From an uncultured virus (IMG/VR IMGVR_UViG_3300031993_000052) (lineage: Duplodnaviria; Heunggongvirae; Uroviricota; Caudoviricetes): 64,000 nt of DNA. A model generated the notes under the pieces. The model saw nothing but the letters and a program-made list of their open reading frames with translations, was not told where the DNA came from and made no database searches. Shown here in pieces: positions 4,438 to 58,237 of this stretch (position 1 is its first letter; each line of letters begins with the position of its first letter). The position numbers were made by a program, and so were the translations under genes. The stretch spans positions 1 through 64,000 of the IMG/VR virus record IMGVR_UViG_3300031993_000052. One strand, 5' to 3'.

Positions 4438-7400
4438 ATGGCACAGTTTCCACAGACACCGATTGGCGGCATAGACGATATGCTTGACAACGCATCCGAA
4501 ATGCTGTTGCGCACAAATCCGAAACTCACAACCAACGTCAAACTGATGACGAACGGAAAGGGTTTGTGGATGGAAAGTTACAGCGCAGACAAGGCATTGT
4601 CCGACAGCAGGTACAAATCCGTCAAGGTGTCCCCGCTCTCGTCATACAGGAAAGACCTTGTAAGTTTCTACAACGGACTCGACAAGACGTCCGCATACGC
4701 CGTTATGGAGGAATACGACAGCGAAAGCGTGAAGGACAACTATGCCGCCCAATACGAGACCTTCTATTGGGCTGGGTGCGAAAGGATTGACTCACTCGAA
4801 TACGACGAGGATATGGGGATGTCCGCCCCGCTTTGGATTTCCGACAAAATGCCTGAAATGTTCGTCATATTCAGAGTCGACGAACCTTCAATATCAAGAC
4901 CGTCAAACCAATCTGAATTTGACTTCAGACGCGACATACTTGAAAAATGCACGATAGTCAGGACGTTCGACCTGACTGAAAACTCACCGATTGGAATGTA
5001 CATAAGGAACTATGCCGCCGAAAAGGGGTTTCCGAAATCGCCAATCACACTGTCGTTGGAACCCGAAACCGTTATGACATACAACGGAATATCATACAAG
5101 AACGGGGAATTTACATCCGCAGTCGAACATTGCCACGAACTTCTGTATGAACACGACGACACAATACTCTCGCTCGAAAAACACATCACGGAAGGATTTG
5201 AACGGAACGGCATAGTGTGCGCAAACCTTATCAACATAGAGTTCCTTTTCGACGACAACGACGCGCAGGAATACTCCATAAACAGATACTTCGGTCTATA
5301 CTGCAACGCCATAGAGGACGCACCGTTCTCACTCGACTGCGAACGCCTGAAATATATGGACAACGAATACCAAGGGAACCCGTCCAAATTCAGTCTGTAC
5401 AGTCAGCGCAACCTTACCGCCGACAACACGCGCGGCGTGGTAATACCCTACACACCGCACGGGAGCATTGACAGGAACCCTTTGCAGGAAGACATAGAAA
5501 ACCTCGACTGCGTGTTCTGCATAAAAGACATAGAAAATTCTATGCACGATATATCAACGATATATCAAAACAACACAATGCGACTGACAGACAAGAAGTT
5601 GAAACTGAATTTGTTGAACGGACTCATTCCGCTTGAAAGCGCAGTTCCCTGCACCTATGACACAAAACCAGTTTCCGCACAGGTGTATATGAATGTGAAC
5701 AGGGACATCCCGACATACACAAAAATATCATTGTGGCAGACCATAGGCGGAGACACAAACCTCATCGGGCAAATCATATCGTCATACATCACGGACGACA
5801 ACGACAACGTGTTGGACATTCAGGGTTGGTTCGACAACGACCAATTCTACGGACGCGGCGAGACTGAAAAAATCGCAGACGCGATTTGCAACTCATTCAA
5901 CTCGACATTCGACACAGGGATAAGAGCGTACAGGAACGGGAGCACCGTCATACTCTCCGCCGACAACCCGTCGTCGACCTATGAATCCTACTCAATCACA
6001 ATAGACGACTGCTCGGATATGGGATGCGTGACAATGGGGAACGGTGCTTTCACAGGCGACTGCACATTCGGACACCTTGTCGTCGGAAAAGACAGCATAG
6101 GTTCATTCACAATCGGCGACTATGTAAGGTCTATGTCAAGGAACGGGTACGCAAGGATAACAGCAGTCGCAATCAACACGGAGGCGCAGACAGACGGTCA
6201 CGTTCTCAAATACACGGACGGCATCAAATACAACGTCCTGACAGACGAGGATGTATGCGGGGTTTCAAGGAACAACACGGTCGAGACATTCAGGGAGTTC
6301 ACTCCTTCGTTTTGCAGACTTTCGTTCTTTCCTGTAAAGGACTTCAACTATTCCACATACGGAAAGAGCGTTTGGGGGGAGATGGGCGAACTCGAATATG
6401 AGAAATCCCTCATCGAGAACCTGACAACGGAAACCGAAATCGAATACAACGCGATGGACGACATAGAACCGCTCGAAAGAGTGGTGGTCGGCATAGAGGA
6501 CTACACACTTGAAGTCCTGTTGGACACAGACGACGCAATCCTCCCTTTCGGGGAAGAGGACTCCTACACAGTAAGGGTCGAACAGGTCGGAGACCCTGCC
6601 GACAGCACCTATGAGGTGACATTGGATATGTCGGTGGAGAACACGCGCTCGGTCGAAAGCGAATACAACAAGATAACAAAGACAGGGTTCAACTTCGCAA
6701 CGCTTTCCACATCGCTCAACAAGAACGAGGAAATTTACATAGACAACGAATACACAAGGTGCTACGAGAACTATGCGTCCCAACTTATGCTCCTCTCAAA
6801 GACCCAACCTTGGATTTGCAAATGGGTGGCGACCGACGGCACGGACATCAGGTGCAACCCCTACCGACTGAACACAAGTCCCGCTTTCGGGCAACTGTCG
6901 TTCTCGCCTGACCACAGGTCGTTCTCGCCTGACACAAACCTGTTCAATCAGGAGTGGGGGTACATATTCGACAAGGTGCCTGAAAGAATGGCAGAAGGCA
7001 ACGATGTGAGCAGGATATGGAGTTACATCGGGGAAAGCGTCACAAAGGACGAAGGCGGAACCATATACGACAACGACCTCGAACGCAACCTGAAATGCAC
7101 CGACCAAGATTGGTTCGACACATATTTCAAAAGGGACTACCTGATTTACGGCGGGGAGAACGACGACACGTTCGCAGACACGCTCGACTATGTGAAGAAA
7201 TACACTAACTTCACAGGAGGAAACGACAATGTGAGCAGTTCCACATTCTTTATGGGTACAAAAATAGAAATCATAGAGAAATCCGATTGGTCGGAGGAGG
7301 TGTCCAACAACCTCGCCAACATAAAGAAACTGTATGGCGGCAAGATGAACGGTTACAGGTTCACGGCGGTGCTTGTCCCGATTTCCGTGACGGACGCAAC

Positions 7401-9183
7401 CGCCATAGGGGACATAAAGACCAAAGTCATACGCAACGACGTGTTCAAGTTCGTTGTGTTGGTCGTATATGTGGTAAGGCAATACAACGACGCGATAGAC
7501 GTCATCGCGGAGGACGAACCCGAACAGCACAGCATATCCATAGACACCATCAACAGATATGTGCTGTATTCGCCGCAGGACAATGTCCTGAACGTGGAGA
7601 ACACCACGCCGATAACTATGCTCGGCGTAGGAAAGATAACGTCAATCATAAAGGAAAGCGGGCAACTGTACACCATATACGGGGAGAACACGAACTTCAC
7701 AAACGATTTCATACCGTATACAGACCACAACACAATAAACGATGTGCCATACAACAAGGAATTGGTACTTGTGAGAAACTACCATTCACAGTCGCCGACC
7801 AAGTTCTTTTCCACATTCGTCATACAGGACGTCATATCAGACACGCAAATGACAGCGGTGCTCGACAGCGACACGCAAAACCCGTTCTCCGCATACGGGA
7901 GGATTCTCAACCTCCATATCCCTATGTGGAACCAAGACGTAGTCTGCTTCTACACGAATACGGACGCAAACGAACCGAGACTCGACACATCGGCATACTT
8001 TGTCGCCAACTGCGACTATGCACAGTTTGCAAGCGCGCTCAACAGATGTGTGTTCGGTTCCATATTCCACGACATCAACGTGATGCAGAAGGAAAACGTG
8101 GTGTATGAACTCGTGGACAAGGACGGCGTGCTGCACACAAGCGAAGGTGAAAACGCAGAGTACCCATACGCAATTATGTTTGTCAAACCGAAGGACAACG
8201 CAAAATACAACTACCTGACAATGAAGTTCGACGGTCAGACAATCGACTACGCGATAATTGCGAACTCCGCATTCCCTATGTTCAGGCACGGATGGGACTT
8301 CACACCGCACAGGACGGAAATACTCAAGTTCAAAGACCCCTATATAGAAGGGATAACAGGTCAACTTTCACCGCACAGGAAATACCTGCTTGAGTCATCA
8401 AGGCACAAAAACACCTGTTTCGCCTCAACGTACAAATCGTTCGCGACGCTTGCACTCGCGTTCCACAGGGCGAACGACAGAAACAGCAATGTGTTCAGAC
8501 TGAAGGAGGGCGACAGACCGCTCTACCCAGTAAGCAACAAGTTCGCAATCGGAACAAGGTCTTTCAACGTGTTCAACTCGCCTTGGGACGCGGGGCACTA
8601 CACGACCACGCTTTCGGAAATCAGCGAGGTGGAATCGCACGGGACTCTTTCAATGAAGGAGCACAAGTCGTTCCTCGCGACGACCTCTATGAAAACGCCA
8701 GACACCATAACACTCGAAACATTCGTACCGTCTGAAACCGAAACCGACAACGCGACCTGCATCCACGAGGAACGCAACGGGAACGTCGTGTTCGACCTCC
8801 TCGTGGAGAAACGCCTCATAATGTATTTCAGGCAGCACCTCGAAAGCGTGTTCGCCGAATACATAGCGGTCGAATACTCCTACGGGGACAAGACGACCAT
8901 CGACGACGACATCGAGGCGTACATAAGGCAGAACCTCCTTTCATTGTACAAGTTGGAGGAAATCACATTCTATGTGAAGGAAACCACGTCCGACACCCTT
9001 GTATATGACTATTCGTTCATAGACAAGTCCGACAATATGAAGAGACGCAACGGTCTGAAACAGGACAAGTCGATTGGACTGAAAACAACCCCGCAATCCG
9101 TTTTCGACAGGCGCATAACATTCAACACCAAACCAAAAAGGACTTACTCGTTCGGAATGTCGGTCAGGATAACAAGAAGGTGA
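4438..9183 (+). CDS. large putative virion structural protein
   Basis: 1581-aa ORF 12 nt after the previous late gene and followed by a terminator. Family not recognised. Confidence 0.55.
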   Translation: MAQFPQTPIGGIDDMLDNASEMLLRTNPKLTTNVKLMTNGKGLWMESYSADKALSDSRYKSVKVSPLSSYRKDLVSFYNGLDKTSAYAVMEEYDSESVKDNYAAQYETFYWAGCERIDSLEYDEDMGMSAPLWISDKMPEMFVIFRVDEPSISRPSNQSEFDFRRDILEKCTIVRTFDLTENSPIGMYIRNYAAEKGFPKSPITLSLEPETVMTYNGISYKNGEFTSAVEHCHELLYEHDDTILSLEKHITEGFERNGIVCANLINIEFLFDDNDAQEYSINRYFGLYCNAIEDAPFSLDCERLKYMDNEYQGNPSKFSLYSQRNLTADNTRGVVIPYTPHGSIDRNPLQEDIENLDCVFCIKDIENSMHDISTIYQNNTMRLTDKKLKLNLLNGLIPLESAVPCTYDTKPVSAQVYMNVNRDIPTYTKISLWQTIGGDTNLIGQIISSYITDDNDNVLDIQGWFDNDQFYGRGETEKIADAICNSFNSTFDTGIRAYRNGSTVILSADNPSSTYESYSITIDDCSDMGCVTMGNGAFTGDCTFGHLVVGKDSIGSFTIGDYVRSMSRNGYARITAVAINTEAQTDGHVLKYTDGIKYNVLTDEDVCGVSRNNTVETFREFTPSFCRLSFFPVKDFNYSTYGKSVWGEMGELEYEKSLIENLTTETEIEYNAMDDIEPLERVVVGIEDYTLEVLLDTDDAILPFGEEDSYTVRVEQVGDPADSTYEVTLDMSVENTRSVESEYNKITKTGFNFATLSTSLNKNEEIYIDNEYTRCYENYASQLMLLSKTQPWICKWVATDGTDIRCNPYRLNTSPAFGQLSFSPDHRSFSPDTNLFNQEWGYIFDKVPERMAEGNDVSRIWSYIGESVTKDEGGTIYDNDLERNLKCTDQDWFDTYFKRDYLIYGGENDDTFADTLDYVKKYTNFTGGNDNVSSSTFFMGTKIEIIEKSDWSEEVSNNLANIKKLYGGKMNGYRFTAVLVPISVTDATAIGDIKTKVIRNDVFKFVVLVVYVVRQYNDAIDVIAEDEPEQHSISIDTINRYVLYSPQDNVLNVENTTPITMLGVGKITSIIKESGQLYTIYGENTNFTNDFIPYTDHNTINDVPYNKELVLVRNYHSQSPTKFFSTFVIQDVISDTQMTAVLDSDTQNPFSAYGRILNLHIPMWNQDVVCFYTNTDANEPRLDTSAYFVANCDYAQFASALNRCVFGSIFHDINVMQKENVVYELVDKDGVLHTSEGENAEYPYAIMFVKPKDNAKYNYLTMKFDGQTIDYAIIANSAFPMFRHGWDFTPHRTEILKFKDPYIEGITGQLSPHRKYLLESSRHKNTCFASTYKSFATLALAFHRANDRNSNVFRLKEGDRPLYPVSNKFAIGTRSFNVFNSPWDAGHYTTTLSEISEVESHGTLSMKEHKSFLATTSMKTPDTITLETFVPSETETDNATCIHEERNGNVVFDLLVEKRLIMYFRQHLESVFAEYIAVEYSYGDKTTIDDDIEAYIRQNLLSLYKLEEITFYVKETTSDTLVYDYSFIDKSDNMKRRNGLKQDKSIGLKTTPQSVFDRRITFNTKPKRTYSFGMSVRITRR

Positions 9184-9188
9184 AAATT

Positions 9189-9215
9189 AAACGCAGGCAA
9201 ACCGCCTGCGTTTTT
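9189..9215 (+). terminator. intrinsic terminator
   Basis: AAACGCAGGC-aaacc-GCCTGCGTTTTT hairpin plus T-tract after the stop codon. Confidence 0.8.
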
Positions 9216-9221
9216 CATTTT

Positions 9222-9243
9222 GGAATTATCGCTTTTAGTCTTG
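9222..9243 (-). repeat. degenerate copy of the TIR (left-end orientation)
   Basis: GGAATTATCGCTTTTAGTCTTG, 21/22 identical to 30220-30241; no partner end found. Confidence 0.65.
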
Positions 9244-9263
9244 TATATGCAGGTTGCAACCGT

Positions 9264-9479
9264 CTAATCGTCGCAATCGCAAAAACCCGTGGCGATATGC
9301 TCACCGCAATACGGGCAGTTATGGTTCCGACCACCTTTAACCAAAAGCGTGTGTTCGGTCATAAAAGTACCGCAATGCGGACATCTTGTTATCCTTACGG
9401 ACAGGTCTTCACCTTTACGCCCGTGATACAATGCCTTCTGCTTTTCTTCAGGCAAACTATGCAAACATTCTTCTGTCAT
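9264..9479 (-). CDS. small zinc-ribbon protein
   Basis: 71 aa with CPHC...CPYC; a CCATTATATTCAA promoter-like motif lies upstream on the minus strand. Confidence 0.55.
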   Translation of the reverse strand: MTEECLHSLPEEKQKALYHGRKGEDLSVRITRCPHCGTFMTEHTLLVKGGRNHNCPYCGEHIATGFCDCDD

Positions 9480-9960
9480 ATCATTTCACCAATTTATCTG
9501 AATATATTTGAATATAATGGAAACCAATTCACCAATCAATCCTATATCGAAAATCCAAATGCACATTCACAACCAATGGTAAAATATCAAACCGAACAAA
9601 CCATATACAATCATTCAAACCAACCAACCTATGTCCAAACCAATCAATCTTATATCGAAATTCCAAACCAATAAAACAGATACAGACCATTCAGACTATC
9701 CAAACCATCCAACCATACAAACATCCAAAAAAAAAATATCAAAGCAAAAAAAAAAAAACAATTCAAAAAAGTGGACCAAAAAAAAGGCAGACAACCAGGC
9801 ATATTACTGATATAATTAGAATTTGGAGATTTTGCTTGTAACATTCCTTTTTTCAATTTGATATATGTTGCGTTTATGTGTGATATATCATTGATATATC
9901 GTTTTTTGTTTTTAATATGCAGTTTGTGTATTTTTCTACGTCTTGTGTAAAAAATGTCCT
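9480..9960. other. candidate replication origin (AT-rich, strand-asymmetric, iteron-like repeats)
   Basis: G-poor A/C tract, two copies of ACCAATCAATCYTATATCGAAA (9531, 9639), poly-A runs, divergent flanking genes, and an apparent C>G to G>C skew switch. Confidence 0.45.
9882..9900. repeat. dispersed GATATATC-N3-GATATATC motif (representative of 11 copies)
   Basis: Copies start at 5548, 9882, 16385, 21012, 24995, 32340, 36496, 45429, 51283, 54154 and 58214. Confidence 0.85.
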
Positions 9961-9962
9961 TC

Positions 9963-9975: not shown

Positions 9976-9999
9976 AAAACAAATCAAATATTTCAGAAT

Positions 10000-16038: not shown

Positions 16039-16386
16039 ATGAAAACCTATAAGTACATTGTGAACGAGAAAAAGCGCACCGTGGTGTGCCTTCTCACTGT
16101 TACGAAAAAAGACGACGGCATTGAAAACACCGAACTTTACCGTGGCATTGCCAAATGCAACCCAGATGACACATTTGACGAAGAGGCGGGCAAGACGCTT
16201 GCAAGACGCAGGGCGATTCTTTCGGAATGCGAGTATGAACTCAACAAACTCGATTGGCGTTGGACTGACGAGGAAATCGAGAACTACCTGACTACGGTCA
16301 CACGGGCAAAGAACTGCAAGCAATATCTCCGCCGCAAGATTCACGAGTTGAAAGTGGAGATAAACAAAACAGTCCGTCCTGAATAA
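16039..16386 (+). CDS. hypothetical phage protein
   Basis: 115 aa; GIAKCNPDDTFDEEAGKTLA..RA motif. Confidence 0.7.
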   Translation: MKTYKYIVNEKKRTVVCLLTVTKKDDGIENTELYRGIAKCNPDDTFDEEAGKTLARRRAILSECEYELNKLDWRWTDEEIENYLTTVTRAKNCKQYLRRKIHELKVEINKTVRPE

Positions 16387-16404
16387 TATATCACCGATAT
16401 ATCA

Positions 16405-20979: not shown

Positions 20980-21053
20980 AAGTTAAAAACGAAAACTTTT
21001 TTGTTATATTAAATATATCAACGATATATCAACTTAAATCAAACCAAAACAAT

Positions 21054-24955: not shown

Positions 24956-25016
24956 AAACAAAATTTCCATTATATTCAAGAAAAAAAAACAAAAAATATA
25001 TTAACGATATATCACT

Positions 25017-27170: not shown

Positions 27171-28322
27171 ATGAAATATACTTTAATAATAGACGGTCAT
27201 AATTTTCTGTTCAGAAGTCTTTACGTCCTTCCGCAAAAGAAGGGCGTGAAGATTTTGTCAGACAAAGAGTCGAAGGATATGTTCGTGTCGAAACTTGAAC
27301 AGAACATAAATGCCGTCCTGCGGGATATGGAACCTGTTATCGACAGGTGCATCATCGCCCTTGATTCCCAATCTTGGAGAAAGAGCATAGATTCGGACGT
27401 GGACTACAAGGGCACGCGACATCAGGAGGACACCATCGACTGGGGCGGTTTCTCCGAATGTATGCACACCTTTGTCGACGGTCTTGGGAAGTACAACATA
27501 ACCGTTTCAAAGACAAAGATGGCGGAGGCGGACGACCTCATCTTCTATTGGTCGCACCTCCTCAACAACAAGGGAATCCCTGTAATCATCTATTCGAGCG
27601 ACAAGGATATGTTGCAGATTGTCGGAGTGACGGACAAAAAGACCGACACGATACTCTATTCGGACGTGACGAAGAAAATCTATGTCCCTGTGGGGTTTGA
27701 GAAACTCGCAAAGAACGATTGCGTCAGTGTATATGACACATTTGTCGCTGGCGGGATTTACGACATCTACGACCGTTTCGCACATCTGAAAGTGCTTGTA
27801 AGCAAGCGCAAACTTGAAATGATTGAGGTCGACGCCGACAGGTTCAGGTTCGTCAAGGTGCTGACAGGCGACAAGAGCGACAATATATCCTCGATATATT
27901 CATACGAGAAAAACGGTCGCACGTTCAATGTCACGGAGGCGAAGGCGGAAAAGATACTTGAGGATTTCACATCGAAGGTAGGTGCGCTGAACAGCGAATA
28001 CCTGTATGTGGACGACACCATAGGCGTCCTTGCGGAGTCCTGTTCAAATGTTCTCAAACTCGAAGGCGAGTGCGACAACCTTGCGAAAAACATCAGACGG
28101 AACGTGAAGTATATGATGCTTTCGCTGAACGCGATACCGAACGAGGTCGCAGACAATATGCTTTCCGACATACGGGAACTTGCGAAAAAGATGAAAAAGG
28201 TGGATTTTTCGTCGGTGCATACTGCGCCTGAATCAATCATAAAGAAAACAGCAGGCATATTCAAGGGCGTTGACGCCTCCGATATGTCGTTTATAAAACC
28301 TGACAAAAATTCATTGTTCTGA
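27171..28322 (+). CDS. rnh: T4-type RNase H / 5'-3' exonuclease
   Basis: LIIDG, SWRK...YKG.R, EADDLI, SSDKDMLQ, GDKSDNI. Confidence 0.85.
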   Translation: MKYTLIIDGHNFLFRSLYVLPQKKGVKILSDKESKDMFVSKLEQNINAVLRDMEPVIDRCIIALDSQSWRKSIDSDVDYKGTRHQEDTIDWGGFSECMHTFVDGLGKYNITVSKTKMAEADDLIFYWSHLLNNKGIPVIIYSSDKDMLQIVGVTDKKTDTILYSDVTKKIYVPVGFEKLAKNDCVSVYDTFVAGGIYDIYDRFAHLKVLVSKRKLEMIEVDADRFRFVKVLTGDKSDNISSIYSYEKNGRTFNVTEAKAEKILEDFTSKVGALNSEYLYVDDTIGVLAESCSNVLKLEGECDNLAKNIRRNVKYMMLSLNAIPNEVADNMLSDIRELAKKMKKVDFSSVHTAPESIIKKTAGIFKGVDASDMSFIKPDKNSLF

Positions 28323-32307: not shown

Positions 32308-32416
32308 AGTTTGGTTGTTTTGAGATATTTATATGCAGCGATATATCAATGATATATCGACTTTGGTGTCGTATAAATATAGTGTGATTCTATTGTTTAA
32401 CCAAAATCCAAAAACT

Positions 32417-35677: not shown

Positions 35678-36496
35678 ATGGCAACGAAAGAGAGTTTGAG
35701 CATCACCGAGTCAATCGGAGGCAGAAGATATTACAACATAGACGAAAACGGCGTACTTCATAAACTGCCGAGCGTCACAACCATTCTTTCCGCTATGACA
35801 GACCAAAGCGGTCTTGAGGCGTGGAGAAACAGGGTAGGTCACGAGGAGGCGGACAGGATAACCACGTTCAGTGCCAACAGGGGAACGTGTATGCACCAAA
35901 AACTTGAGTATTGGTTCACATCGGACATCGTCGACAAACAGGCAAGGTTGATTGACGTGAACCGAAAGATGGATGTGTTTGTGAAGGAGAACGGTTACAC
36001 CGCCGAAGAACTCGCCTGCGGAAACAAACTGTTCAACAGTCTTTATGTGTGCGGTTTTTTTGAAAGGGTGAAGTCGATAATCGAAATGGAGGATACCCTG
36101 TATTCAATGGCATACGGAGGGTATGCGGGACGCGTTGACTGCGTGTATGAGAATCAGGACGGACTTCCAGTGCTGCTCGACTTCAAGACCGCGCGGCACA
36201 AGAAACGCCCTGAATACATCACCAACTACTATATGCAGTTGAGCGCGTACTATCTTGCCTATTACCAAATGTTCGGCGTGAAACTCGACCACGCGGAACT
36301 TTGGATTGCGGTGGAGAACGATGTCCCGCAACTCGTGTATGTCACATACGAGGAACTGAAAAGTTGGTTGAACCATTTTCTCAAACTCGTCGACGGATAC
36401 CACAAAAAATACGACTGTGTGCTTGAGGAGCATTTGAAGTCGCTTCAAGTTCCTGTTATTCAGAACCTCAAGGACGTCGTTGCAAGAAAATTATAA
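35678..36496 (+). CDS. PD-(D/E)XK exonuclease
   Basis: PSVTTIL, RGT.MH, YAGRVD...LLDFKT, QLSAY. Confidence 0.85.
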   Translation: MATKESLSITESIGGRRYYNIDENGVLHKLPSVTTILSAMTDQSGLEAWRNRVGHEEADRITTFSANRGTCMHQKLEYWFTSDIVDKQARLIDVNRKMDVFVKENGYTAEELACGNKLFNSLYVCGFFERVKSIIEMEDTLYSMAYGGYAGRVDCVYENQDGLPVLLDFKTARHKKRPEYITNYYMQLSAYYLAYYQMFGVKLDHAELWIAVENDVPQLVYVTYEELKSWLNHFLKLVDGYHKKYDCVLEEHLKSLQVPVIQNLKDVVARKL

Positions 36497-36530
36497 ATAT
36501 ATCAATGATATATCTACAATAAAAATCACT

Positions 36531-45421: not shown

Positions 45422-45623
45422 CTGTCAAGATATATCACTGATATATCATCATTTTATACAAATGCCTGTTTTTCAGTCGTTACGGTAGAAATGTTATTTT
45501 TAGGTGTGTTGTAAAACAGCACATATAAATATATAACAGGAATGCGGAAATCTTTTGGATTATAGAAGAAAAGAATCCGCCGAAAAAGATTAGCATTCAC
45601 ACAAAGAATATACTTTAAGTATT

Positions 45624-49571: not shown

Positions 49572-51305
49572 ATGATGAATGCGGAATGTGACACTACTAT
49601 GGAAGAACTCAAAAATTTTCTCAATGCCAAACCCGTGTACTTGCAGGAAAGCAAATTTGCAGTGAAGTTTCCCGATGAGTATGTCACATTGTGCAGTTGG
49701 AAGTTTCCCGACGGGTTCACATTCCAGCAGAAACTTTATCATTATGTCAATGGCGACAATATATTCAGACTTGGATTGTGTCCCACTTGTGGAAAGCGTT
49801 GCAGGTTCAAGTCATTTGGCAGAGGTTACTTTGAGTATTGCAGCAAATCCTGTATCTATACAAAGGAGCGTTCCGAAAAGTGCAAGGAGACAAAACTTGA
49901 ACGATATGGTGACTCCAACTACAATAACATAGAAAAGGCGAAGCGTACTTGTATTGACAGATATGGTGTGGAGAACGTCTCGCTTGTTGAGAGCATATCG
50001 GAGCAGAAATCGGAAACAAGACGTAACAGGACATCGGATGAGAAAGCGGCGACAAGGGAGAAAATAGCACGGACGTGGGCGGCAAAGACAGATGATGACG
50101 TAAACAGGCATATAGAGAGTATCCGACAGGGAAAACTTGAAAAGTATGGGGACGTCAATTTTTCAAATCCGCAAAAGACAAAGGATACTAAACTTGAAAG
50201 ATATGGGACACCAACCTATGTGAACCCTGAAAAAATGGTCGCGACAAAGCGTGCGAAGGCATTGGATGCAGACCCGAACATAATCAGTTTCAATACTGAC
50301 GGCAGCGTGGTCAGGAGATGTGATAATCCATCCTGTGACAGGTGTGATGAAAAGTGCTATACCACATTCACGAGACTTCATTATGACAGAATCAGACTTG
50401 GGTGTATCACCTGCACCAAACTAAATCCCATTGACAGGCACACGAGCGGAGGTGAGAATGAGTTGTATGAATATGTCAGGGGGGTGTACGGAGGAACCAT
50501 AGTGAAGAATGACAGGGGTGTCCTCGGAGGTCAGGAACTTGACATCTATCTTCCTGACAAGAAACTCGCATTTGAGTTCAACGGGTTGTATTGGCACAGT
50601 GATTTATACAAGGACAAGAACTATCACTTTGAGAAATCAAAATCCTGTATGGAGAAAGGTGTGAGACTTGTCCATATATGGGAGGATGATTGGCGTTACA
50701 GGAGGGATATTGTGGAGAACCTCATATCAGGAATATTGGGAAAGCACAATACTTACATAAACGCAAGGAAATGTTCGGTGGGAAAGGTGGATGCAAAAAC
50801 AGCGCGAGTGTTTTGTGATAAATACCATATACAGGGTTATGTGAACTGTGCTGTCAGATATGGTATTTTCTATAATGGAGAACTTGTGATGGTCTCGTTA
50901 TTTGGAAAGCGCAGGCGGATTTGCGGAGGTGTCCCGAAAGAGAATGTTTGGGAACTTTACAGGATGTGTTCGGTGTTCGGAACGAGAGTTCGCGGAGGTG
51001 CGAGCAGATTGCTTGTGCATTTCATCAATGATGTCAGACCGAACTCCATAGTAACTTTTGCCGACTCCTGTATTTCTGACGGTGGAGTCTATGAGAAAAT
51101 GGGTTTTGTGAAGGACGGTGTTGTGCCGCCATCCTACTATTGGGTTGTTGGCATTGAACGTGTGCCGAGATATAGGTTCCAAAAGTCAATGCTTGAGGAG
51201 TGCAAGGACAACTCTGACCTTACGGAGGATGAGGTGATGCGGTCAAGAGGATGCCTCAAAATATGGGATGCGGGAAAAGTGAGATACATCATTGATATAT
51301 CGTAA
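49572..51305 (+). CDS. putative homing endonuclease with GNAT-like C-terminus
   Basis: Shared N-terminal Cys cluster and ERYG repeats; ELDIYLP...AFEFNGLYWH...HIWEDDW; GGASRLL...FAD...G.VY..MGF. Confidence 0.65.
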   Translation: MMNAECDTTMEELKNFLNAKPVYLQESKFAVKFPDEYVTLCSWKFPDGFTFQQKLYHYVNGDNIFRLGLCPTCGKRCRFKSFGRGYFEYCSKSCIYTKERSEKCKETKLERYGDSNYNNIEKAKRTCIDRYGVENVSLVESISEQKSETRRNRTSDEKAATREKIARTWAAKTDDDVNRHIESIRQGKLEKYGDVNFSNPQKTKDTKLERYGTPTYVNPEKMVATKRAKALDADPNIISFNTDGSVVRRCDNPSCDRCDEKCYTTFTRLHYDRIRLGCITCTKLNPIDRHTSGGENELYEYVRGVYGGTIVKNDRGVLGGQELDIYLPDKKLAFEFNGLYWHSDLYKDKNYHFEKSKSCMEKGVRLVHIWEDDWRYRRDIVENLISGILGKHNTYINARKCSVGKVDAKTARVFCDKYHIQGYVNCAVRYGIFYNGELVMVSLFGKRRRICGGVPKENVWELYRMCSVFGTRVRGGASRLLVHFINDVRPNSIVTFADSCISDGGVYEKMGFVKDGVVPPSYYWVVGIERVPRYRFQKSMLEECKDNSDLTEDEVMRSRGCLKIWDAGKVRYIIDIS

Positions 51306-51858: not shown

Positions 51859-51860
51859 TT

Positions 51861-52171: not shown

Positions 52172-54142
52172 ATGGTTGACGGAAACAGAACTACGGCGAA
52201 TGGAGACCAACTGCTTGTCAGCGTGAAGGAACCATATCTCAACCTGATGGAGATTTCGGGTTACGAGTATGTGGCTAAAGGCGAGACTGAAACATTGTAC
52301 TATACAAAGGAGTTCAGGTGGTCTACGGACGGAATCCTCTACAACGATTGGAAACCCCTGACCAATGAAAACCTGAAGAATATACTCCTAACACCTGACA
52401 AACCTTTCTATCCCCAATACCGCCTCACGCAGAACGGCGACGGAGAACTGACGTTCGAGAGCATCGCGCTCGAAACCGTCACGGAGGAAGGTCTTGTCAC
52501 CTCAATACCGTTGTGCGGCATTGACGACAACAGCAACTGCTGTGGACGGCAGAACCTCGTGTTCGAGTGCTGCGGCGGCGGGTTCAATCCCTATTCGGTC
52601 GGAAACTCCTCCTATGTCTATACCCAACTCTCGCAGGTGGTTTCCAATATGTTCGGTTTCTGCGTGCAATACTTCAAGACAAGCGCAGACCAACGCTCGA
52701 AGGACGTCATCCTGCACGAATACTCATTGCTCAACGTGATTGCGGAGGGGAATGTGAAGATTGTCGTGCCCGACAACCAACTGCCGACGAGGGAGATAAA
52801 CTTCAACCCCCTTATGATGGACTATCCAGTGGTGTTCGAGGTGCATATCGTCAAGCAGGGGTTCAGGAGCGCTTTCGGTCAGGACGCCAAACCCGAAGTG
52901 GGGGACTATCTCTATTTCGAGCAGTATGTGAACAAGATGTACGAAGTGAACGCTGTGTCCGAAACCGACGACTATCTTTACACAGGAGCGTATTGGAGGG
53001 TCAGTCTCGCGCAGTATCAGAAACGGAGCGCGGTCAAGTTCGAGACTCCAGAAATTGAACTTGCCACCGACACCCTCATATTCAACACCGACAAGTTCAA
53101 CATCGAGGTCGAGAAACAGGAGGAGGATGTACGCAAACCTGAACAGTACAACACGATAGGCAAGGTCGAGAACGACTATGTGCGCAGGATACTCGACAAG
53201 CGCCTGAAAATCGAAACGGAGAGTATATACAACAACTGGACGGTCATCTCCAAGCACCATTACGCGCTGAAGTCCATACCTCGCGGGCAGACCGCCATAC
53301 AGTACAGGTATGACAGTGGGTGGGGTGAAAGTGACGACAGGATGTTCACTATGTGGTTCAGACCGAAATACGCGAACCCGAATTTCATAGACTCTTCCAA
53401 CAAGACCTATGCGGACTCGCAGTTTCCAAAGACCGATGTGATGGAAATACTGAACGACGGCGGTTATGCCGTGTTCAGGGTTGAAAGTGTGAAAAACATA
53501 TCGGAGGGTATGCTTGTCCGAGTGAACGGAACCAACTATCCGAAGGTTATGAAAGTTGTGTCGGTGGACTATGAAAACAATCTGTTCAAGGTTAACAACA
53601 GGTATATTGACAACTGCATTGTGGTTAACGCCTGTGTCCTGCCTTCGCAAACCAATGAGTTCCTTGTTTCGGAAGGAGGGTTTGCATTGTCATACGCATT
53701 CAAGTCCGTGTGTGTGTCGTTGGGCGGGAAAGACATTCTGTTCGACCTCAAGAAAAACGGGGCGGACGGTTTCGGAGGTCTTTTGGCGGACAGGTGGTGG
53801 GCGTTCGTCGTTATGGTGAAACCGTCGGAAAAGAAATGCGCATTGTGGATATACTCGTTGAGTTCGGGGAATCCGAACCTCCGCACGATGGATTCCGCAA
53901 TCAGTCAAGTCTATTATTCTATGCAGGAAGTCCACGGAGACCTCACCGTCGGCGACGGGCATTTCGGTTTGCGTTCCTGTGCTATGGACATAACGAACAT
54001 AAGGATATGGAACGAACTGTGCGAGGAAGACAAGCACAATCTCATTCTGTCGCAGTATGTCGTGAAGGATAGTCACAAGTGCGAACTCGTGGACAATGCA
54101 CAACCTGAACTTATGCTCGACAAGGTAACCAATCCGAGATAG
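52172..54142 (+). CDS. virion protein, probably neck/head-completion (gp14-like central domain)
   Basis: Late promoter; FEVHI.K..F...FG..AKP.VGDYLYF....KMYEV resembles gp14. Confidence 0.5.
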   Translation: MVDGNRTTANGDQLLVSVKEPYLNLMEISGYEYVAKGETETLYYTKEFRWSTDGILYNDWKPLTNENLKNILLTPDKPFYPQYRLTQNGDGELTFESIALETVTEEGLVTSIPLCGIDDNSNCCGRQNLVFECCGGGFNPYSVGNSSYVYTQLSQVVSNMFGFCVQYFKTSADQRSKDVILHEYSLLNVIAEGNVKIVVPDNQLPTREINFNPLMMDYPVVFEVHIVKQGFRSAFGQDAKPEVGDYLYFEQYVNKMYEVNAVSETDDYLYTGAYWRVSLAQYQKRSAVKFETPEIELATDTLIFNTDKFNIEVEKQEEDVRKPEQYNTIGKVENDYVRRILDKRLKIETESIYNNWTVISKHHYALKSIPRGQTAIQYRYDSGWGESDDRMFTMWFRPKYANPNFIDSSNKTYADSQFPKTDVMEILNDGGYAVFRVESVKNISEGMLVRVNGTNYPKVMKVVSVDYENNLFKVNNRYIDNCIVVNACVLPSQTNEFLVSEGGFALSYAFKSVCVSLGGKDILFDLKKNGADGFGGLLADRWWAFVVMVKPSEKKCALWIYSLSSGNPNLRTMDSAISQVYYSMQEVHGDLTVGDGHFGLRSCAMDITNIRIWNELCEEDKHNLILSQYVVKDSHKCELVDNAQPELMLDKVTNPR

Positions 54143-54210
54143 CGGAAAGCGCTGATATATCAATGATATATCCGCATATAAATATATGCGGAGCAATCAT
54201 AGACATAATT

Positions 54211-54789
54211 ATGGCAGAGATAAAGAAAGCGAACCTTACATTTCCAAAATCTTTCACGAAAAGGAAGAAAACCACTGAAATCATACTCCATTGCGCGGCA
54301 ACGAAGGAGGGCGTGAACTACAGCGTGAACGCAATACACAATATGCACATCAAGAAAGGGTGGAACGGAATTGCTTACAACTACTACATAGACCTCTACG
54401 GCACGATTTGGGAAGGTCGTCCCGAAGACTGCGTCGGGGCGCACACTACCGACCACAATTCAATCTCAATCGGCATCTGCTATTGCGGCGGCGTCGACAA
54501 GAACAACAAGGCGAAGGATACAAGGACGCCCGCGCAGACCGCCGCTATGATTTGGCTGTGCAGATATTTGCACAAGAAATACCCGAACGCGACGTTCCAC
54601 GGGCACAGGGAGTTCGCGAACAAGGCGTGCCCGTCTTTCGATGTCAAGACTTGGATTAAGACGTTCGACCTGAATATGCCAGACAACGGATTGACGCCTG
54701 TCGTGAAGTCGACGGACAACGCAAAAAAAGTGGCGGACGCAACCACGAAGATTATCGACAAGATTTCAAAACTGTTCAAGAAAAAATAA
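54211..54789 (+). CDS. N-acetylmuramoyl-L-alanine amidase (endolysin, T7-lysozyme type)
   Basis: IILHCAAT...GW..IAYNY...GR...GAH...N..SIGICYCGG...GHREF.NKACPSF. Confidence 0.92.
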   Translation: MAEIKKANLTFPKSFTKRKKTTEIILHCAATKEGVNYSVNAIHNMHIKKGWNGIAYNYYIDLYGTIWEGRPEDCVGAHTTDHNSISIGICYCGGVDKNNKAKDTRTPAQTAAMIWLCRYLHKKYPNATFHGHREFANKACPSFDVKTWIKTFDLNMPDNGLTPVVKSTDNAKKVADATTKIIDKISKLFKKK

Positions 54790-54795
54790 ACGACT

Positions 54796-55170
54796 ATGAA
54801 TACATTTTACCTATACACACCAATCTATATCAAAGACCTTTCAGAACACGGTTTCACGCTGAAGCGCGGACGCAAGTTCAACAGCACATTCCTTTTCCAC
54901 AAGGAGTGCGCAATCGGTATGAACGCATATATCGACGAGGACGAAAACGGGGGATACATAGACACCCTGAACGTGACCGACGAGTGCGAGGGAGTGTTCG
55001 TCCGCCTGTACGAGGCGTTCAAACCTCAACTTATGGACGAGTTCTGGTTCACTATGTGGAACTCCCTGAACGATGCGAACAAGACCGAAAGCGAATACAA
55101 AAGGGCATTGGACAATTCCGCATACACAGCAAGGCGTTTGGTTGAGAATGCAATGCGGAAAAACGTATAA
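54796..55170 (+). CDS. hypothetical protein
   Basis: 124 aa. Confidence 0.6.
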   Translation: MNTFYLYTPIYIKDLSEHGFTLKRGRKFNSTFLFHKECAIGMNAYIDEDENGGYIDTLNVTDECEGVFVRLYEAFKPQLMDEFWFTMWNSLNDANKTESEYKRALDNSAYTARRLVENAMRKNV

Positions 55171-55194
55171 ATACAAAAAATAAATTTTGGAACT

Positions 55195-55593
55195 ATGACA
55201 CACATAATGAGAATTGACGAGATGTCTGATGGTATAAAAAAATCTGAAATTACATTTGAAGAATTGATTTCAATGACGGATAATTTTACAGTCAGGTGTT
55301 CTTTACGGAGTCGGTATGATTTTGTAATCAAAAGGGATTTTCTGTTTGATATTGTAAGAAAAAATGGAAATACAATCGACGCTACAATAGAGGAAATGGA
55401 TTCCATTGAAGGTGAAACTAAAAAAATGGGTGTTCGTTACAAAAAGGATGTAAAAATGACATTTGATGAAACTGAAATGTCAATTTCGGCAAATGTTGTA
55501 CTCGCTGATATTTTGAAAGACTTTGACAATGAATTTTTTAGGAAGAATGAACTCATATCAATCGACATAATAGTAGGTGACGATGTTTTTTAG
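55195..55593 (+). CDS. hypothetical late protein (AT-rich)
   Basis: 132 aa after TATAAATA at 55166; N-terminus MTHIMRIDEM. Confidence 0.6.
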   Translation: MTHIMRIDEMSDGIKKSEITFEELISMTDNFTVRCSLRSRYDFVIKRDFLFDIVRKNGNTIDATIEEMDSIEGETKKMGVRYKKDVKMTFDETEMSISANVVLADILKDFDNEFFRKNELISIDIIVGDDVF

Positions 55594-55606
55594 ACATTCG
55601 ATACAA

Positions 55607-55656
55607 TTTTGAAACAAAAAAGGGGAGCACATTGTGCCCCCTTTTTTGTTTCAAAA
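55607..55656. terminator. bidirectional terminator between convergent blocks
   Basis: TTTTGAAACAAAAAAGGGG...CCCCTTTTTTGTTTCAAAA. Confidence 0.8.
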
Positions 55657-55780
55657 AATCCAAATTGGCAGATAAGCAGAAATCGCCGCTTTTACGGCAT
55701 TTTATCTTTTTTATGTACACAGATACCATTTTTTGAACATAGTGTCCAAAACAGGCGAAAACACGCCTAAAATTAAAAAT

Positions 55781-56293
55781 CTATACCCAAGTTATCTTTT
55801 TGTATTCTCCGTCTTCGTAGTAACCGAACGAAAAGCACATCGGGGTTAGGAAAACTGGTTCTGTGATGATGTTCTTTTTGTATTTGTCCGCATACCCCTT
55901 GTTCATATATGCGATTGTGATATGGGGTTTGTAGGTCGTGAACTCCGTGTGGAGGGTGTAGTTCGCCTTTATCGCGGAGTTTGTCGTATGAAGCGCTTGG
56001 CATACCACGCCGCATTTCAGGACGTCGTAGTTGTCGTTGCTGAACACGCTCACGTCTGAAAGCATTGTCTTGTAGTCGTTGAGAGGAAGCAGGTGCTTTT
56101 TCAACTGTTCAAGGTTGACGTCGTTGTCGAGACAGGGAGCGAGCGTGACGTGCGTCTCGGTTTCAAGTCCATAGACGAACGGTGAATCTGGGTCGCTCGG
56201 TTTGTACAGTTCATAGTCCTTGATGCTGTTTTGGATTCCCTTTATGTAGTCAGGTGTTTGGAAGTCCACCATCAAAAATGCGTATTTGTCCAT
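55781..56293 (-). CDS. 2H phosphoesterase (T4 gp57B/Acb1-like)
   Basis: Two HxT motifs (THVTL, PHITIAY); 170 aa; at the 3' end of the tRNA array. Confidence 0.7.
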   Translation of the reverse strand: MDKYAFLMVDFQTPDYIKGIQNSIKDYELYKPSDPDSPFVYGLETETHVTLAPCLDNDVNLEQLKKHLLPLNDYKTMLSDVSVFSNDNYDVLKCGVVCQALHTTNSAIKANYTLHTEFTTYKPHITIAYMNKGYADKYKKNIITEPVFLTPMCFSFGYYEDGEYKKITWV

Positions 56294-56345
56294 ATCTGTT
56301 TTTTTTATTATTGTCGGTTTGTATTTATAAACCGCTGCTTGTTAG

Positions 56346-56418
<73 letters not shown>

Positions 56419-56419
56419 T

Positions 56420-56719
56420 TTACACGTCCTTTGACATAAGGACGCCTATTTTTCCTTCCGTGAAAAGTCTTGCCTGTTCGAGCGTGCAAAAGATTGCGGG
56501 TCGTTCGTTGAACTCATTGTCTATGCAGATTGCGACTCTCGGTTCGGACGGTTCCTCCACATCCTCAAACCAACCGCTTCCGTTCATACAGACCTCGCTT
56601 TCATCATCGACCTCATATACGACATAGCGTTTTGCCGTTGAAATTTCAATGCTTCCGTCAATGGCGGTTCCGAAAATATAGTTCACGCTTTCTTCTTTGA
56701 TAATGTATTTGCTTTCCAT
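56420..56719 (-). CDS. hypothetical protein inside the tRNA array
   Basis: 99-aa acidic ORF with A-rich leader. Confidence 0.6.
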   Translation of the reverse strand: MESKYIIKEESVNYIFGTAIDGSIEISTAKRYVVYEVDDESEVCMNGSGWFEDVEEPSEPRVAICIDNEFNERPAIFCTLEQARLFTEGKIGVLMSKDV

Positions 56720-56745
56720 ATTCTTGATTTTTGTTTTTTAATTTG

Positions 56746-56816
56746 TTGTCGGTCAGAGGGTCGAACTCCGATTAGCGGAACCAGAATCCGCTGTGCTGCC
56801 ATTACACCAACCGACA
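56746..56816 (-). tRNA. tRNA-Gln(CTG)
   Basis: GCGGA-TT CTG GT-TCCGC. Confidence 0.92.
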
Positions 56817-56822
56817 TTACAA

Positions 56823-57014
56823 GACCATTTGAGACAATGCCGCCAACTCTTCCACGTCGTTTCCGATACGCTTAAACAAGGGGTTACATCAATGCTCACC
56901 CCCCAACGGACAGTACGTCCGCTGTATCCGACCCGTATCTCAAATCTTGGGGTGACGTCACTTCCCCGTGAGGACACGTTGTTCTCGGCATAGTCGTCAT
57001 TGCCCACTTTGGTC
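56823..57014 (-). ncRNA. ~190-nt long-hairpin RNA candidate
   Basis: Ends pair (GACCA..GGGCAATG / CATTGTCT..TGGTC); lies between two tRNAs. Confidence 0.4.
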
Positions 57015-57020
57015 ATTGTG

Positions 57021-57092
57021 AGCGGTGGACGGGATTTGAACCCGCAACCCCGACCTTGGCAAGGTCGTATTCTGCCGTTGAACTACCACCGC
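57021..57092 (-). tRNA. tRNA-Gly(GCC)
   Basis: CGACC-TT GCC AA-GGTCG. Confidence 0.95.
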
Positions 57093-57239
57093 ATCGTCTC
57101 TTTTCATCAGACTTCCTTGCAATATCCGAATCTTGTACTACCGGGCATCAATAAGCACATCCGTCCTATTGACATTTTGAGACACACCCGTTTAATTGTT
57201 GTCTATCGTGAAACAATCTAAAGACCGCCTATGTGTTTG

Positions 57240-57311
57240 CAAGACCATAGGATTTGAACCTCCATTTCATCATTGGACGGATGATATTCTACCAAATTGA
57301 ACTATCGCCGC
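57240..57311 (-). pseudogene. degenerate tRNA (GTC loop, broken acceptor stem)
   Basis: D arm and TTCAAAT T-loop recognisable; ATCAT-CCGTCCA-ATGAT; acceptor does not pair. Confidence 0.5.
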
Positions 57312-57338
57312 CGGACGAAATTTTGGACATTTCGTTTG

Positions 57339-57409
57339 CAGGAGTGGAAGGACTCGAACCTCCGTCTACGGTTTTGGAGACCGTCGTTCTACCACTGAAC
57401 CACACTCCT
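57339..57409 (-). tRNA. tRNA-Trp(CCA)
   Basis: ACGGT-CT CCA AA-ACCGT. Confidence 0.95.
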
Positions 57410-57435
57410 ATTCACCGTTGAACTACAGACTCAAG

Positions 57436-57518
57436 TGCGGACGGTGAGAGTCGAACTCACACGGGGATACCCCCACCACCCCCTCAAGGTGGCGCGCCTG
57501 CCATTTCGCCACGTCCGC
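57436..57518 (-). tRNA. tRNA-Leu(GAG)
   Basis: CCACC-TT GAG GG-GGTGG; long variable arm. Confidence 0.93.
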
Positions 57519-57529
57519 ATAATCTCATA

Positions 57530-57696
57530 GATGCAACCAATCACTTTCCGCTTTGGCGGTGTATTCGGACTACGGGTCGATTACCTCCGACGTCCTAATT
57601 ACGTCCATTCTCTCTAACGGGCACTCGATGTCCATCAGTGAAGTTCTATTCGGGGCGTCGTCACGTTTCCCGCTACGGGTCTATATTGGTTGCATC
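57530..57696 (-). ncRNA. ~167-nt structured RNA candidate
   Basis: Perfect 12-bp closing stem GATGCAACCAAT/ATTGGTTGCATC. Confidence 0.5.
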
Positions 57697-57837
57697 CGTT
57701 TAAGAAATTCGGCAAACGAGTTTTGTATCGTCATCTTAAACTAAATGTTGACACAACCGCATCGCATTCTGCGGTCGCTTTGAAACGCCAACAATGTGCC
57801 CACAACGAAGGGTCACAAATCTTGCCGTATCCCATTG

Positions 57838-57911
57838 TACCGGCAGGTGGATTTGAACCACCGTCTCCGCCTTATGAGGGCGGCGCAAGAAACCGACTCC
57901 GCTATGCCGAT
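57838..57911 (-). tRNA. tRNA with CAT anticodon (Met/Ile2)
   Basis: CCGCC-CT CAT AA-GGCGG. Confidence 0.85.
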
Positions 57912-58085
57912 GTTTTGAAAACAAAAACCAACAGGTGTTTTGATTAAACTATGTATTCCTTTTTCTTGCTTATCGGGTCTCGATGACCCGTGGAACCCAC
58001 CTCTGATTTGCCTTGCAGCGTCAGTGATTCTCTGTTGTCAATGCACGGAACAGTTATGCCCTATCGCAATGTTTTTGTTTCCAAG

Positions 58086-58174
58086 CGGAGGGGGTAGGAT
58101 TTGAACCCACGGAACCCTTGCGGGTTCGGCGGTTTTCAAGACCGCTGCAATAAACCAGACTCTGCCACCCCTCC
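58086..58174 (-). tRNA. tRNA-Ser(TGA)
   Basis: GCGGT-CT TGA AA-ACCGC; long variable arm. Confidence 0.95.
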
Positions 58175-58237
58175 AAAAATACTCCTGCTTTAAGGCAAGT
58201 CAGGTGAACCTTTGATATATCATTGATATATCGCTTG

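Follow-up and report, generated by a model that had tools for sequence, protein, structure and literature searches.

The Virus Record and Its Gene Content

The DNA analyzed here (hereafter the window) is a stretch of 64,000 bases from an uncultured virus of the Caudoviricetes, corresponding to bases 1-64000 of the 75,477-base record IMG/VR IMGVR_UViG_3300031993_000052 (completeness rating 26%), along which a short double palindrome recurs at kilobase intervals. A second IMG/VR record of 124,221 bases prolongs this record, with 100% identity across the 65,827 bases that the two share, and both were joined by script into a merged contig of 133,871 bases (~134 kb). Given the CheckV completeness of the two records (26-39%), less than half of the genome is covered. 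The source of the window is a ~300-kb jumbo myophage of the bovine gut, of the type with T4 late promoters, and its sequence is present in both bovine and sheep gut metagenome runs. Its genes include those for a tail sheath, major head protein and amidase, those for a split DNA polymerase and a Rad50-like ATPase, and one for a gp55-like late sigma factor, and 26 tRNA genes lie on the - strand at window positions 56345-63775. No integrase, repressor or lysogeny genes were seen among the annotated phage genes.

A 19-bp Palindrome Repeated along the Contig

The window was searched with the pattern GATATATC-N3-GATATATC, allowing up to two mismatches, and 100 dinucleotide shuffles served as the background. 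Twelve matches were found, whereas the shuffles had 0.01 on average and one at most. The half-site GATATATC occurs 18 times in the window, where 0.47 occurrences are expected, and stands alone only at 30545; on both strands of the extended contig it occurs 68 times, compared to 4.8 by an order-3 Markov model. Composition was ruled out as the cause of the motif by the shuffles and the Markov expectation, which answers the question raised by the initial annotation of whether its frequency merely reflects AT content. All 11 copies listed in that annotation were recovered at the coordinates given, together with a weak twelfth (27882) that had been missed, and the division into six perfect copies (5548, 9882, 32340, 45429, 54154 and 58214) and five with one or two changes in the first half only (16385, 21012, 24995, 36496 and 51283) was borne out. 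The claim that the spacer always starts with A holds for all 11 of these window copies and fails for three of the 21 copies of the longer contig, which have the spacers GCA, GTT and TGC.

Across the merged contig there are 21 good copies and one doubtful one, the + strand copy AATATATCCTCGATATATT at 27882..27900, which lies within an exonuclease-like coding sequence (27171-28322) and has two mismatches, one in each half. Since the spacer reads A-N-T in 12 of the 22 copies, the true unit is a 19-bp perfect palindrome, GATATATCA-N-TGATATATC, with arms of 9 bp, which is a direct and an inverted repeat at once. The sequence beyond the 19-mer is not conserved, with neither conserved flanking ends nor target duplications, and there are no decayed copies, as matches with three or four mismatches were either offsets of true copies or at the background level (~3.2 expected). 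A full-text literature search for the 8-mer returned only primers and barcodes among the matches listed, and none on phages or regulation.

Nine copies are cleanly asymmetric (16385, 21012, 24995, 36496 and 51283 in the window, and 64784, 78379, 93693 and 114247 in merged coordinates), and in all nine the variant half is the left one of the + strand regardless of gene direction (two-sided P ~0.004), including two that sit in - strand gene regions. This bias was not seen in the motif-bearing relative G006, a 36.7-kb sequence with six copies, two of them in coding sequence. Spacers of AAC or ACC mostly belong to the asymmetric copies.

Even Spacing of the Copies

The intervals between copies on the merged contig have a mean of 6167 bp, a standard deviation of 2439, a range of 2469-12236 and a coefficient of variation (CV) of 0.40. 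None of 20,000 uniform placements was as even as the 21 copies, and only one of 20,000 draws among the 82 intergenic gaps was, with a CV of ~0.87 expected under random intergenic placement. The 19 intergenic copies alone have a CV of 0.355, which was matched by none of 20,000 draws (P<1e-4), and this result holds whether the minimum candidate gap is set at 15, 18 or 40 nt. Three other classes of element in the same DNA served as controls, and all were spaced as expected by chance: the promoter-like motif P1 (CV 0.76), the late-promoter motif TATAAATA (1.02), both described below, and terminator-like hairpins (1.26). The intervals in G006 are 2.8-10.2 kb.

Position Relative to Promoters and Terminators

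By our open reading frame (ORF) calls, 19 of the 21 copies are in non-coding DNA, which makes up 15.5% of the merged sequence (binomial P=6e-14). The motif TATAAATA has 41 occurrences, mostly 12-56 nt ahead of start codons and on the correct strand, which is the pattern of T4 late promoters. A second motif, P1 (tttt-TT(A/G)TTATATT(C/A)AA), is found 14-25 nt ahead of many start codons, at window positions 21001, 24969, 9966, 15093, 31261, 33500 and 51321, among others. P1 is also present in two relatives that lack the palindrome, G002 (121.6 kb; 14 copies) and the complete 413-kb genome G010 (~42 places), and is probably the early or middle promoter of the family, separate from the late class of TATAAATA.

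Six copies adjoin P1 (21012, 24995, 51283, 87703, 123749 and 128894) and four adjoin TATAAATA (32340, 36496, 54154 and 73195). Those fused to P1 or right after it are 21012 and 24995 and also, on the - strand, 123749 and 128894. The + strand copy AATATATCAACGATATATC at 21012..21030 is fused to the promoter-like TTGTTATATTA (21001-21011), with an ATG 23 nt downstream, and forms the left edge of a block that is collinear with G002, and the + strand copy AATATATTAACGATATATC at 24995..25013 has the motif ATTATATTCA (24969) on one side and an ATG (25017) on the other. In G002, the gene orthologous to the one at 25017 has the promoter motif and no copy. Three copies stand ahead of P1 (9882, 51283 and 87703). 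Of these, the perfect copy at 9882..9900 (spacer ATT) lies in a 190-nt gap, with a T-run after it and the promoter-like TTGTTATATT at 9966, upstream of an IF-1-like gene. The + strand copy GATACATCATTGATATATC at 51283..51301 falls within the final 22 nt of a DUF7487 gene (49566-51305), 20 nt ahead of another TTGTTATATT motif (51321), and a contig from an RNA library (X7 record 21, 50949-51373) spans it.

Among the copies associated with late promoters, the perfect copy at 32340..32358 (spacer AAT) is located between divergent genes and between two outward TATAAATA motifs, at 32326 (- strand, 6 nt off) and 32372 (+ strand, 13 nt off). The + strand copy AATATATCAATGATATATC at 36496..36514 overlaps TATAAATA (36492-36499), forming TATAAATATATC, and also overlaps the stop codon of gene 35678-36496. 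The perfect copy at 54154..54172 (spacer AAT), which separates gene 52172-54142 from the amidase gene, is 4 nt ahead of TATAAATA (54177), and the copy at 73195 is likewise beside this motif. In two cases a copy overlaps a late-promoter -10-like motif, so that, by the T4 rule for the presumed start, transcripts from there would probably be without the first arm.

Terminators and gene ends are also represented. Four copies (45429, 64784, 80848 and 114247) are 0-8 nt from separate terminator hairpins, and 64784 and 80848 are at convergent gene ends. The perfect copy at 45429..45447 (spacer ACT) is 7 nt past an intrinsic-terminator-like hairpin (~45395-45421) and 77 nt ahead of the late-promoter motif of the major head gene. 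The + strand copy AATATATCACCGATATATC at 16385..16403 occupies the whole 18-nt gap between two + strand genes, with its first bases overlapping the upstream stop codon and the following ATG 1 nt beyond it. The perfect copy at 58214..58232 (spacer ATT) is between the genes for tRNA-Ser (58085-58174) and tRNA-Ala (58237-58311), both on the - strand, as was originally described. Since copies adjoin every kind of signal, they keep no fixed distance to promoters, and we agree with the earlier remark that their position relative to promoter-like motifs is inconsistent. The palindrome was also considered as a promoter in its own right, for a phage RNA polymerase or for late transcription, and was rejected as such based on the use by this phage of TATAAATA and a gp55-like sigma and on the varying distance of the palindrome.

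These positions bear most directly on one alternative, that the copies are a dispersed array of operators or roadblocks at which a global phage repressor shuts or insulates transcription units, blocking initiation where a copy overlaps a promoter and elongation elsewhere, as with L5 stoperators, P1 C1 operators and KorB. In its favor, ten of the 21 copies are within ~26 nt of a promoter-like motif, and the fused TATAAATATATC arrangement recurs in G006 (at 31300 and 11901). Where a copy is between P1 and the ATG, the distance separating these two is 35-43 nt rather than the usual 14-25 nt, which would put the beginning of the copy only a few bases from the presumed transcript start. Stoperators are also intergenic and genome-wide (PMC9283540). 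However, operators are not expected to be evenly spaced, the promoter motifs themselves are randomly spaced, and there is nothing to repress at the convergent gene ends or between tRNA genes. In addition, the two coding copies described below cost amino-acid changes, orthologs in G002 have the same promoter motif and lack a copy, and no integrase or repressor gene was seen. We consider an operator array of this kind unlikely.

Copies in Coding Sequence

Two copies are inside genes. The perfect copy GATATATCAACGATATATC at 5548..5566 (+ strand) lies within an ORF of 1581 aa (4438-9183), confirming its earlier placement deep in a coding sequence, and the second is in an FtsH-like gene. Both share one reading frame, GAT ATA TCA ACG ATA TAT, which encodes DISTIY. 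In G002, the orthologous FtsH-like gene is palindrome-free, with GACATATCAAAAATACAT coding for DISKIH at this place. Among homologs of the 1581-aa protein, the residues are DISMIY at 78% identity, DISKIH at 69% and unrelated farther out. These are peptide-level data, and DISMIY written with the codons of the window (GAT ATA TCA ATG ATA TAT C) could be a perfect copy. A related-locus search of IMG/VR around the in-gene copy found no relatives. The coding copies were therefore made in place by substitutions, including the nonsynonymous changes K to T or M and H to Y. Such an origin argues for selection on the DNA sequence and against the insertion of a mobile element.

RNA Folding

The 19-mer can fold into an 8-bp stem with a 3-nt loop, reaching -9.5 kcal/mol with its flanks at 32340. 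A second alternative is that the palindrome acts as an RNA or DNA hairpin, either as the conserved apex of bidirectional intrinsic terminators or as a stem-loop that stabilizes or processes mRNA, similar to the PeSL stem-loops of T4-type phages. Supporting this idea are the four copies that adjoin separate terminator hairpins and, above all, the related metagenome loci, where seven of 21 copies (among the matches listed) are the apex of hairpins extended by 6-8 covarying flanking pairs, with a T or A run before or after and energies of -21 to -23 kcal/mol. PeSLs likewise vary in their place relative to the promoter and mark the borders of variable regions (PMC2839356). In this phage, however, none of the 22 copies has stem-extending flanks, nor does any of the six in G006, and the combination of a G+C-rich stem and a T-run that characterizes intrinsic terminators was found in some relatives only. 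The stem of the 19-mer is invariant and never covaries, and the variant copies have broken pairs (A-C, C-A) and form very weak RNA hairpins of -1.5 to -2.5 kcal/mol, with copy 51283 folding no better than its shuffles. Furthermore, copies inside genes would terminate or cut essential messages, terminator-like hairpins are not evenly spaced, and an Rfam search of the 64-kb window gave tRNA matches only at the gathering score. A hairpin function for the array is, in our estimation, quite improbable.

Distribution among Related Phages

In addition to G006, at least ~19 metagenome loci that are related by protein or by sample bear the motif; the results for these loci derive from the flanks around the matches listed. 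A contig of 144 kb from the source sample has copies as well. Four relatives have no copy: G002, G008, G009 and G010. The head protein of G002 is 80% identical to that of this phage, and the genes that G006 and G002 have in common are 80-85% identical, and therefore the gain or loss of the motif was recent. The array is restricted to one lineage. The position of a site turns over even where the gene neighborhood is syntenic. The relative L101 keeps the tRNA-Ser/tRNA-Ala pair with no copy in the spacer, its copy being 179 nt past tRNA-Ala; a further instance is the gene at 25017, whose ortholog in G002 has no copy. The intergenic region ahead of the head gene could not be aligned with that of G002.

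The two motif-free relatives that were checked for a substitute yielded candidates that were rejected. In G002 these were confined to repeats at the codon level and a tandem repeat of 18 nt in coding sequence. In G010 the candidate was a composite, TTTTTTCNGAAAAAA followed by GTTATCAAC-ARA-GTTATCAAC, which is unrelated to the palindrome and irregularly spaced. The composite motif is found at ~23 places in G010 (L300-L320), such as 36874, 67527, 77060, 149158 and 392211, and is absent from the phage of the window, G002 and G006.

The identical 19-mer also occurs as a single copy in many Rhizobiales genomes (Mesorhizobium, Phyllobacteriaceae; L069, L071, L081, L087, L091, L094 and many other loci), where it covers the -10 of a TTGACA promoter whose downstream gene begins with ATGTGG. 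There it is apparently an unrelated, ordinary operator, and this operator-like use implies that proteins can read the site. The matches in cellular genomes gave no clue to the host, as the best 80 of the 103 matches were on different contigs and none of the 103 resembled this phage.

The distribution also bears on the possibility that the palindrome is a selfish miniature element of the REP or PATE kind, spread by a transposase or by gene conversion and functionless for the phage. The copies are identical and mostly intergenic, their presence differs between close relatives, and the contig has an IS605-type TnpB gene (OrfB_IS605 and Cas12f-like TNB; merged 100024-101235), all of which count in its favor. 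However, TnpB was the only component of REP/RAYT or IS200/IS605 systems detected, with no match to the Y1 transposase (PF01797) in the incomplete records G000, G001 and G006. The lack of conserved flanking ends, target duplications and decayed copies, the non-random spacing and the origin of the coding copies by substitution all speak against mobility. The 19-mer is moreover kept exact in phages of 34-46% GC whose proteins are only 40-80% identical, and no bacterial genome had more than one exact copy with the A-N-T spacer among the best 80 of the 103 matches. We regard a selfish origin as very unlikely.

Mosaic Junctions

Strain contigs that are ~95-97% identical to the window were compared over positions 36001-56000; these are assembled contigs only, which show no ends or nicks and in which short matches to the repeat can mimic breakpoints. 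RNA cover was missing from parts of this region, and the contigs carry no information on transcript ends or strands. A contig of strain X2 diverges exactly before the copy at 51283 and has a loose end exactly before 54153, and both X2 and X5 diverge after 54184, just beyond the TATAAATA motif 3' of copy 54154. In X5 the DUF7004 gene is replaced at 51841, with a copy 11 nt ahead of this point, and in both strains the segment 45421-45521 is replaced by 102 other letters. When compared with G010, synteny is broken at all eight gaps that contain a copy and have homologs on either side, compared to 13 of 29 other gaps (P=0.005). A small gene that is 3' of a copy in this phage is 5' of the copy in L187. 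The copies, in short, sit at module borders.

It is conceivable, based on these junctions, that the palindrome is the target of an endonuclease or recombinase, which would nick or cut it for recombination-dependent replication or clamp loading, or that it is a crossover point for cassettes. The divergence of strain contigs at copy edges, the synteny breaks and the small gene that changes sides are all in keeping with this idea, as are the numerous HNH or homing-endonuclease-like and Rad50/Mre11-like genes of the phage, and a need for hot spots near any break would favor even spacing. On the other hand, the excess of breakpoints fades as longer gaps are considered (P=0.057 for gaps >=18 nt and 0.15 for gaps >=40 nt), the copies may simply mark module borders, and the limits of contig data noted above apply to the breakpoints themselves. 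Overall, we find a target of this kind rather unlikely, at a somewhat lower level than the operator array.

Four homing-endonuclease-like proteins of the DUF7487 family are encoded at 42666-44648, 47596-49560, 49566-51305 and L051:11619-13514, and flank the major head gene. They have a weak Mom/GNAT-like match at the C-terminus, and the family is without a solved structural relative. DUF7487 tracks the motif, being present in both motif-bearing records and in none of the four motif-free ones, yet the family is very large and widespread (>4600 matches), which detracts from its value as support for an endonuclease. It was also considered as the protein that reads the site and, given the size of the family and its varied DNA-binding fusions, was set aside as only a weak lead.

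A Possible Array of Protein-Binding Sites

The explanation that we favor, with a probability that we place a little short of even, is that the palindromes are arrayed sites at which a symmetric protein specific to the lineage binds or is loaded and from which it acts at a distance. The 19-bp palindrome would be a selected, sequence-specific recognition site in double-stranded DNA, kept as an even array of about one per 6 kb along the genomes of a single rumen jumbo myophage lineage. A symmetric protein of that lineage, in the form of one dimer or two, would dock on each site and, once docked, would act over kilobases by spreading, sliding, bridging or coating. With action at a distance of the ParB/KorB/Noc type, spacing would matter more than exact position, and a site could be placed wherever the compact genome tolerates it: beside promoters and terminators, in the terminator loops of relatives or within coding sequence. 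As identical repeats, the sites would also become junctions for mosaic exchange. Taken together, the even spacing, the lack of decayed copies and the coding sites gained at a cost in amino acids point to a distance-dependent function at the DNA level.

Several observations weigh against an array of binding sites. No ParB_N or clear HTH or RHH domain was found in Pfam and PHROG scans of the ORFs of the 134 kb or in six-frame searches; the six-frame search for PF02195 gave no match in G000, G001, G002 and G006, with the records of this phage covering 26-39% of its genome and controls matched in 11 of 14 genomes. The existence of motif-free relatives means that the function is either dispensable or replaced by something undetected, and no evenly spaced substitute palindrome was found in G002 or G010, the two that were checked. 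The extended hairpins of the metagenome relatives show selection on the folded structure there and fit a role in RNA or as a terminator; in our reading, the terminator apex is where a crowded genome can safely accommodate a palindrome, and these copies also provide the hairpin alternative with its strongest evidence. The spacing test was post hoc, performed after the spacing had been remarked on in the initial annotation, and is somewhat weaker for it, and the fading breakpoint excess described above counts here as well.

The initial annotation had proposed that the palindrome binds a dimeric or tetrameric protein that organizes, segregates or packages the genome, rather than serving as a simple operator. 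The proposal is supported in part. Its genome-scale aspect gains from the exclusion of composition, the variable distance to promoter-like motifs, the even spacing, the origin of coding copies by substitution and the turnover of positions, and its segregation and packaging aspects do not; a roadblock or global repressor, as an operator in the wide sense, keeps a small share of the probability.

We also speculate that the palindromes could be the entry sites of a tracking system, in which a ring or coat is loaded at each site and slides away from it over a limited range, which would force the kilobase spacing. The ring could be a KorB- or ParB-like clamp, or a sliding clamp of the T4 type that activates TATAAATA late promoters after loading at a site-specific nick. 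This more specific idea is doubtful. Were it correct, a built-in array of enhancers or loading sites would be described here for the first time in a phage genome, and late transcription or genome coating would be freed from replication forks.

Other Features of the Contig

The phage has several cell-like genes, including those for an IF-1 homolog (window 10000-10245), a GroES-like protein (21863-22144), a thioredoxin (29827-30141), the FtsH-like AAA+/M41 protease (L050:7953-10076) and a Thg1-like tRNA-His guanylyltransferase (L051:7017-7916). In the tRNA region, one Rfam tRNA match is 156 nt long (61693-61848) and may contain an intron, and a tmRNA called by ARAGORN (61860-62242) overlaps tRNA-Lys and is probably false. 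Approximately 20 tandem paralogous genes for proteins of 140-160 aa extend on the - strand from L052:14380 to L053:4105 (merged 124.0-133.8 kb), which match no family and lack homologs in the complete G010 genome, and in two of them the palindrome lies between the promoter motif and the start codon.

The first 498 bases of the window (1-498, and 2-451 on the - strand) are an inverted copy, 93% identical, of merged 99941-100438 beside the TnpB gene. The open frame at the start of the window may be a second TnpB truncated by the contig end, and no TnpA was found. A second repeated element, GGAATTATCCCTTTTAGTCTTG, occurs in the window at 472 (- strand), 9222, 30220, 31242 (- strand) and 31718 (- strand) and in merged coordinates at 94382, 99959, 101240 (- strand) and 114273. 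It often runs on into a TATAAATA motif, is also present in G002 and beside terminators in the metagenome relatives L077 and L166, and could be a small RNA or regulatory cassette.

Comparison with Known Systems

Dispersed arrays of identical binding sites are found on plasmids, in temperate phages and on bacterial chromosomes, and we know of no description of a strictly even palindrome array of one per 6 kb in a large virulent-type phage. Among plasmid arrays, that of the KorB operators (OB), with 12 sites on a 60-kb plasmid, is similar to the present one in having short perfect palindromes at kilobase intervals on a mobile genome at inconsistent distances from promoters; to our knowledge, neither even spacing nor copies in coding sequence have been described for OB sites. 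KorB is a ParB-family, CTP-dependent sliding clamp of the IncP plasmid RK2 that loads at OB and slides to distant promoters (PMC11790492). The phage site differs from OB in being another, longer sequence (19 bp), in lying on a ~300-kb virulent-type myophage genome rather than a plasmid, and in having no ParB_N partner in the records of this phage, which cover 26-39% of the genome.

The chromosomal pairs parS/ParB, NBS/Noc, matS/MatP and SBS/SlmA have palindromes of 13-16 bp that may lie in genes, and their dimers spread on, bridge or organize DNA. The two coding copies here, made by substitutions, show a similar tolerance of a short palindrome in genes. Chromosomal arrays occupy or exclude one region and are much sparser, whereas the phage array is uniform at 6 kb; in particular, instead of the few sites clustered near an origin or par operon that are typical of parS, there are 21 copies spread evenly over 134 kb. 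Homologs of ParB, Noc, MatP and SlmA were not found in the phage records. The uptake sequences of Haemophilus and Neisseria (USS and DUS) are short, exact, over-represented motifs that are reportedly evenly spread, arise by point substitution, are often paired as inverted repeats in terminators and also occur in coding sequence. They differ in being 9-12-mers at a density of ~1 kb that serve DNA uptake by competent bacteria, a process for which we know of no counterpart in any phage.

Among phages, P1 C1 operators and the conserved inverted repeats of phiC31 are comparable dispersed repressor sites. The temperate mycobacteriophage L5 has more than twenty near-identical repressor sites, the stoperators, genome-wide in promoters and short intergenic spaces (PMC9283540). 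Stoperators are asymmetric 13-mers read by a monomer, with an orientation that follows transcription, whereas the phage site is palindromic, is present in coding sequence too and belongs to a phage in which lysogeny genes were not seen; 12 of its 22 copies are perfect palindromes, and the nine asymmetric copies are left-variant even in the two - strand regions. The PeSLs of T4-type phages are repeated intergenic motifs with a stem-loop placed variably relative to a promoter, and mark the borders of segments in which related phages differ by insertion, deletion or replacement (PMC2839356; PMC4122927). They are composite promoter-terminators with variable stems, clustered in hyperplastic regions, in contrast to a fixed 19-mer with no promoter of its own, which has a promoter-like motif near only 10 of 21 copies, weak hairpins at its variants and even spacing.

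If the array has the role proposed, a distance-dependent function was gained or lost between close relatives, and, with both motif-bearing and motif-free relatives available (one of them complete at 413 kb), the gene for the protein that reads the site could be sought by phyletic profiling of full genomes. The array would then provide a system in which to test how the genomes of giant phages are organized, insulated or marked as self, and, as its copies coincide with mosaic junctions, it may shape the exchange of modules between these phages. By analogy, and with no claim of membership in any of these families, we propose that the array may work like the site arrays of KorB, ParB and Noc, and in part like stoperators and PeSLs.

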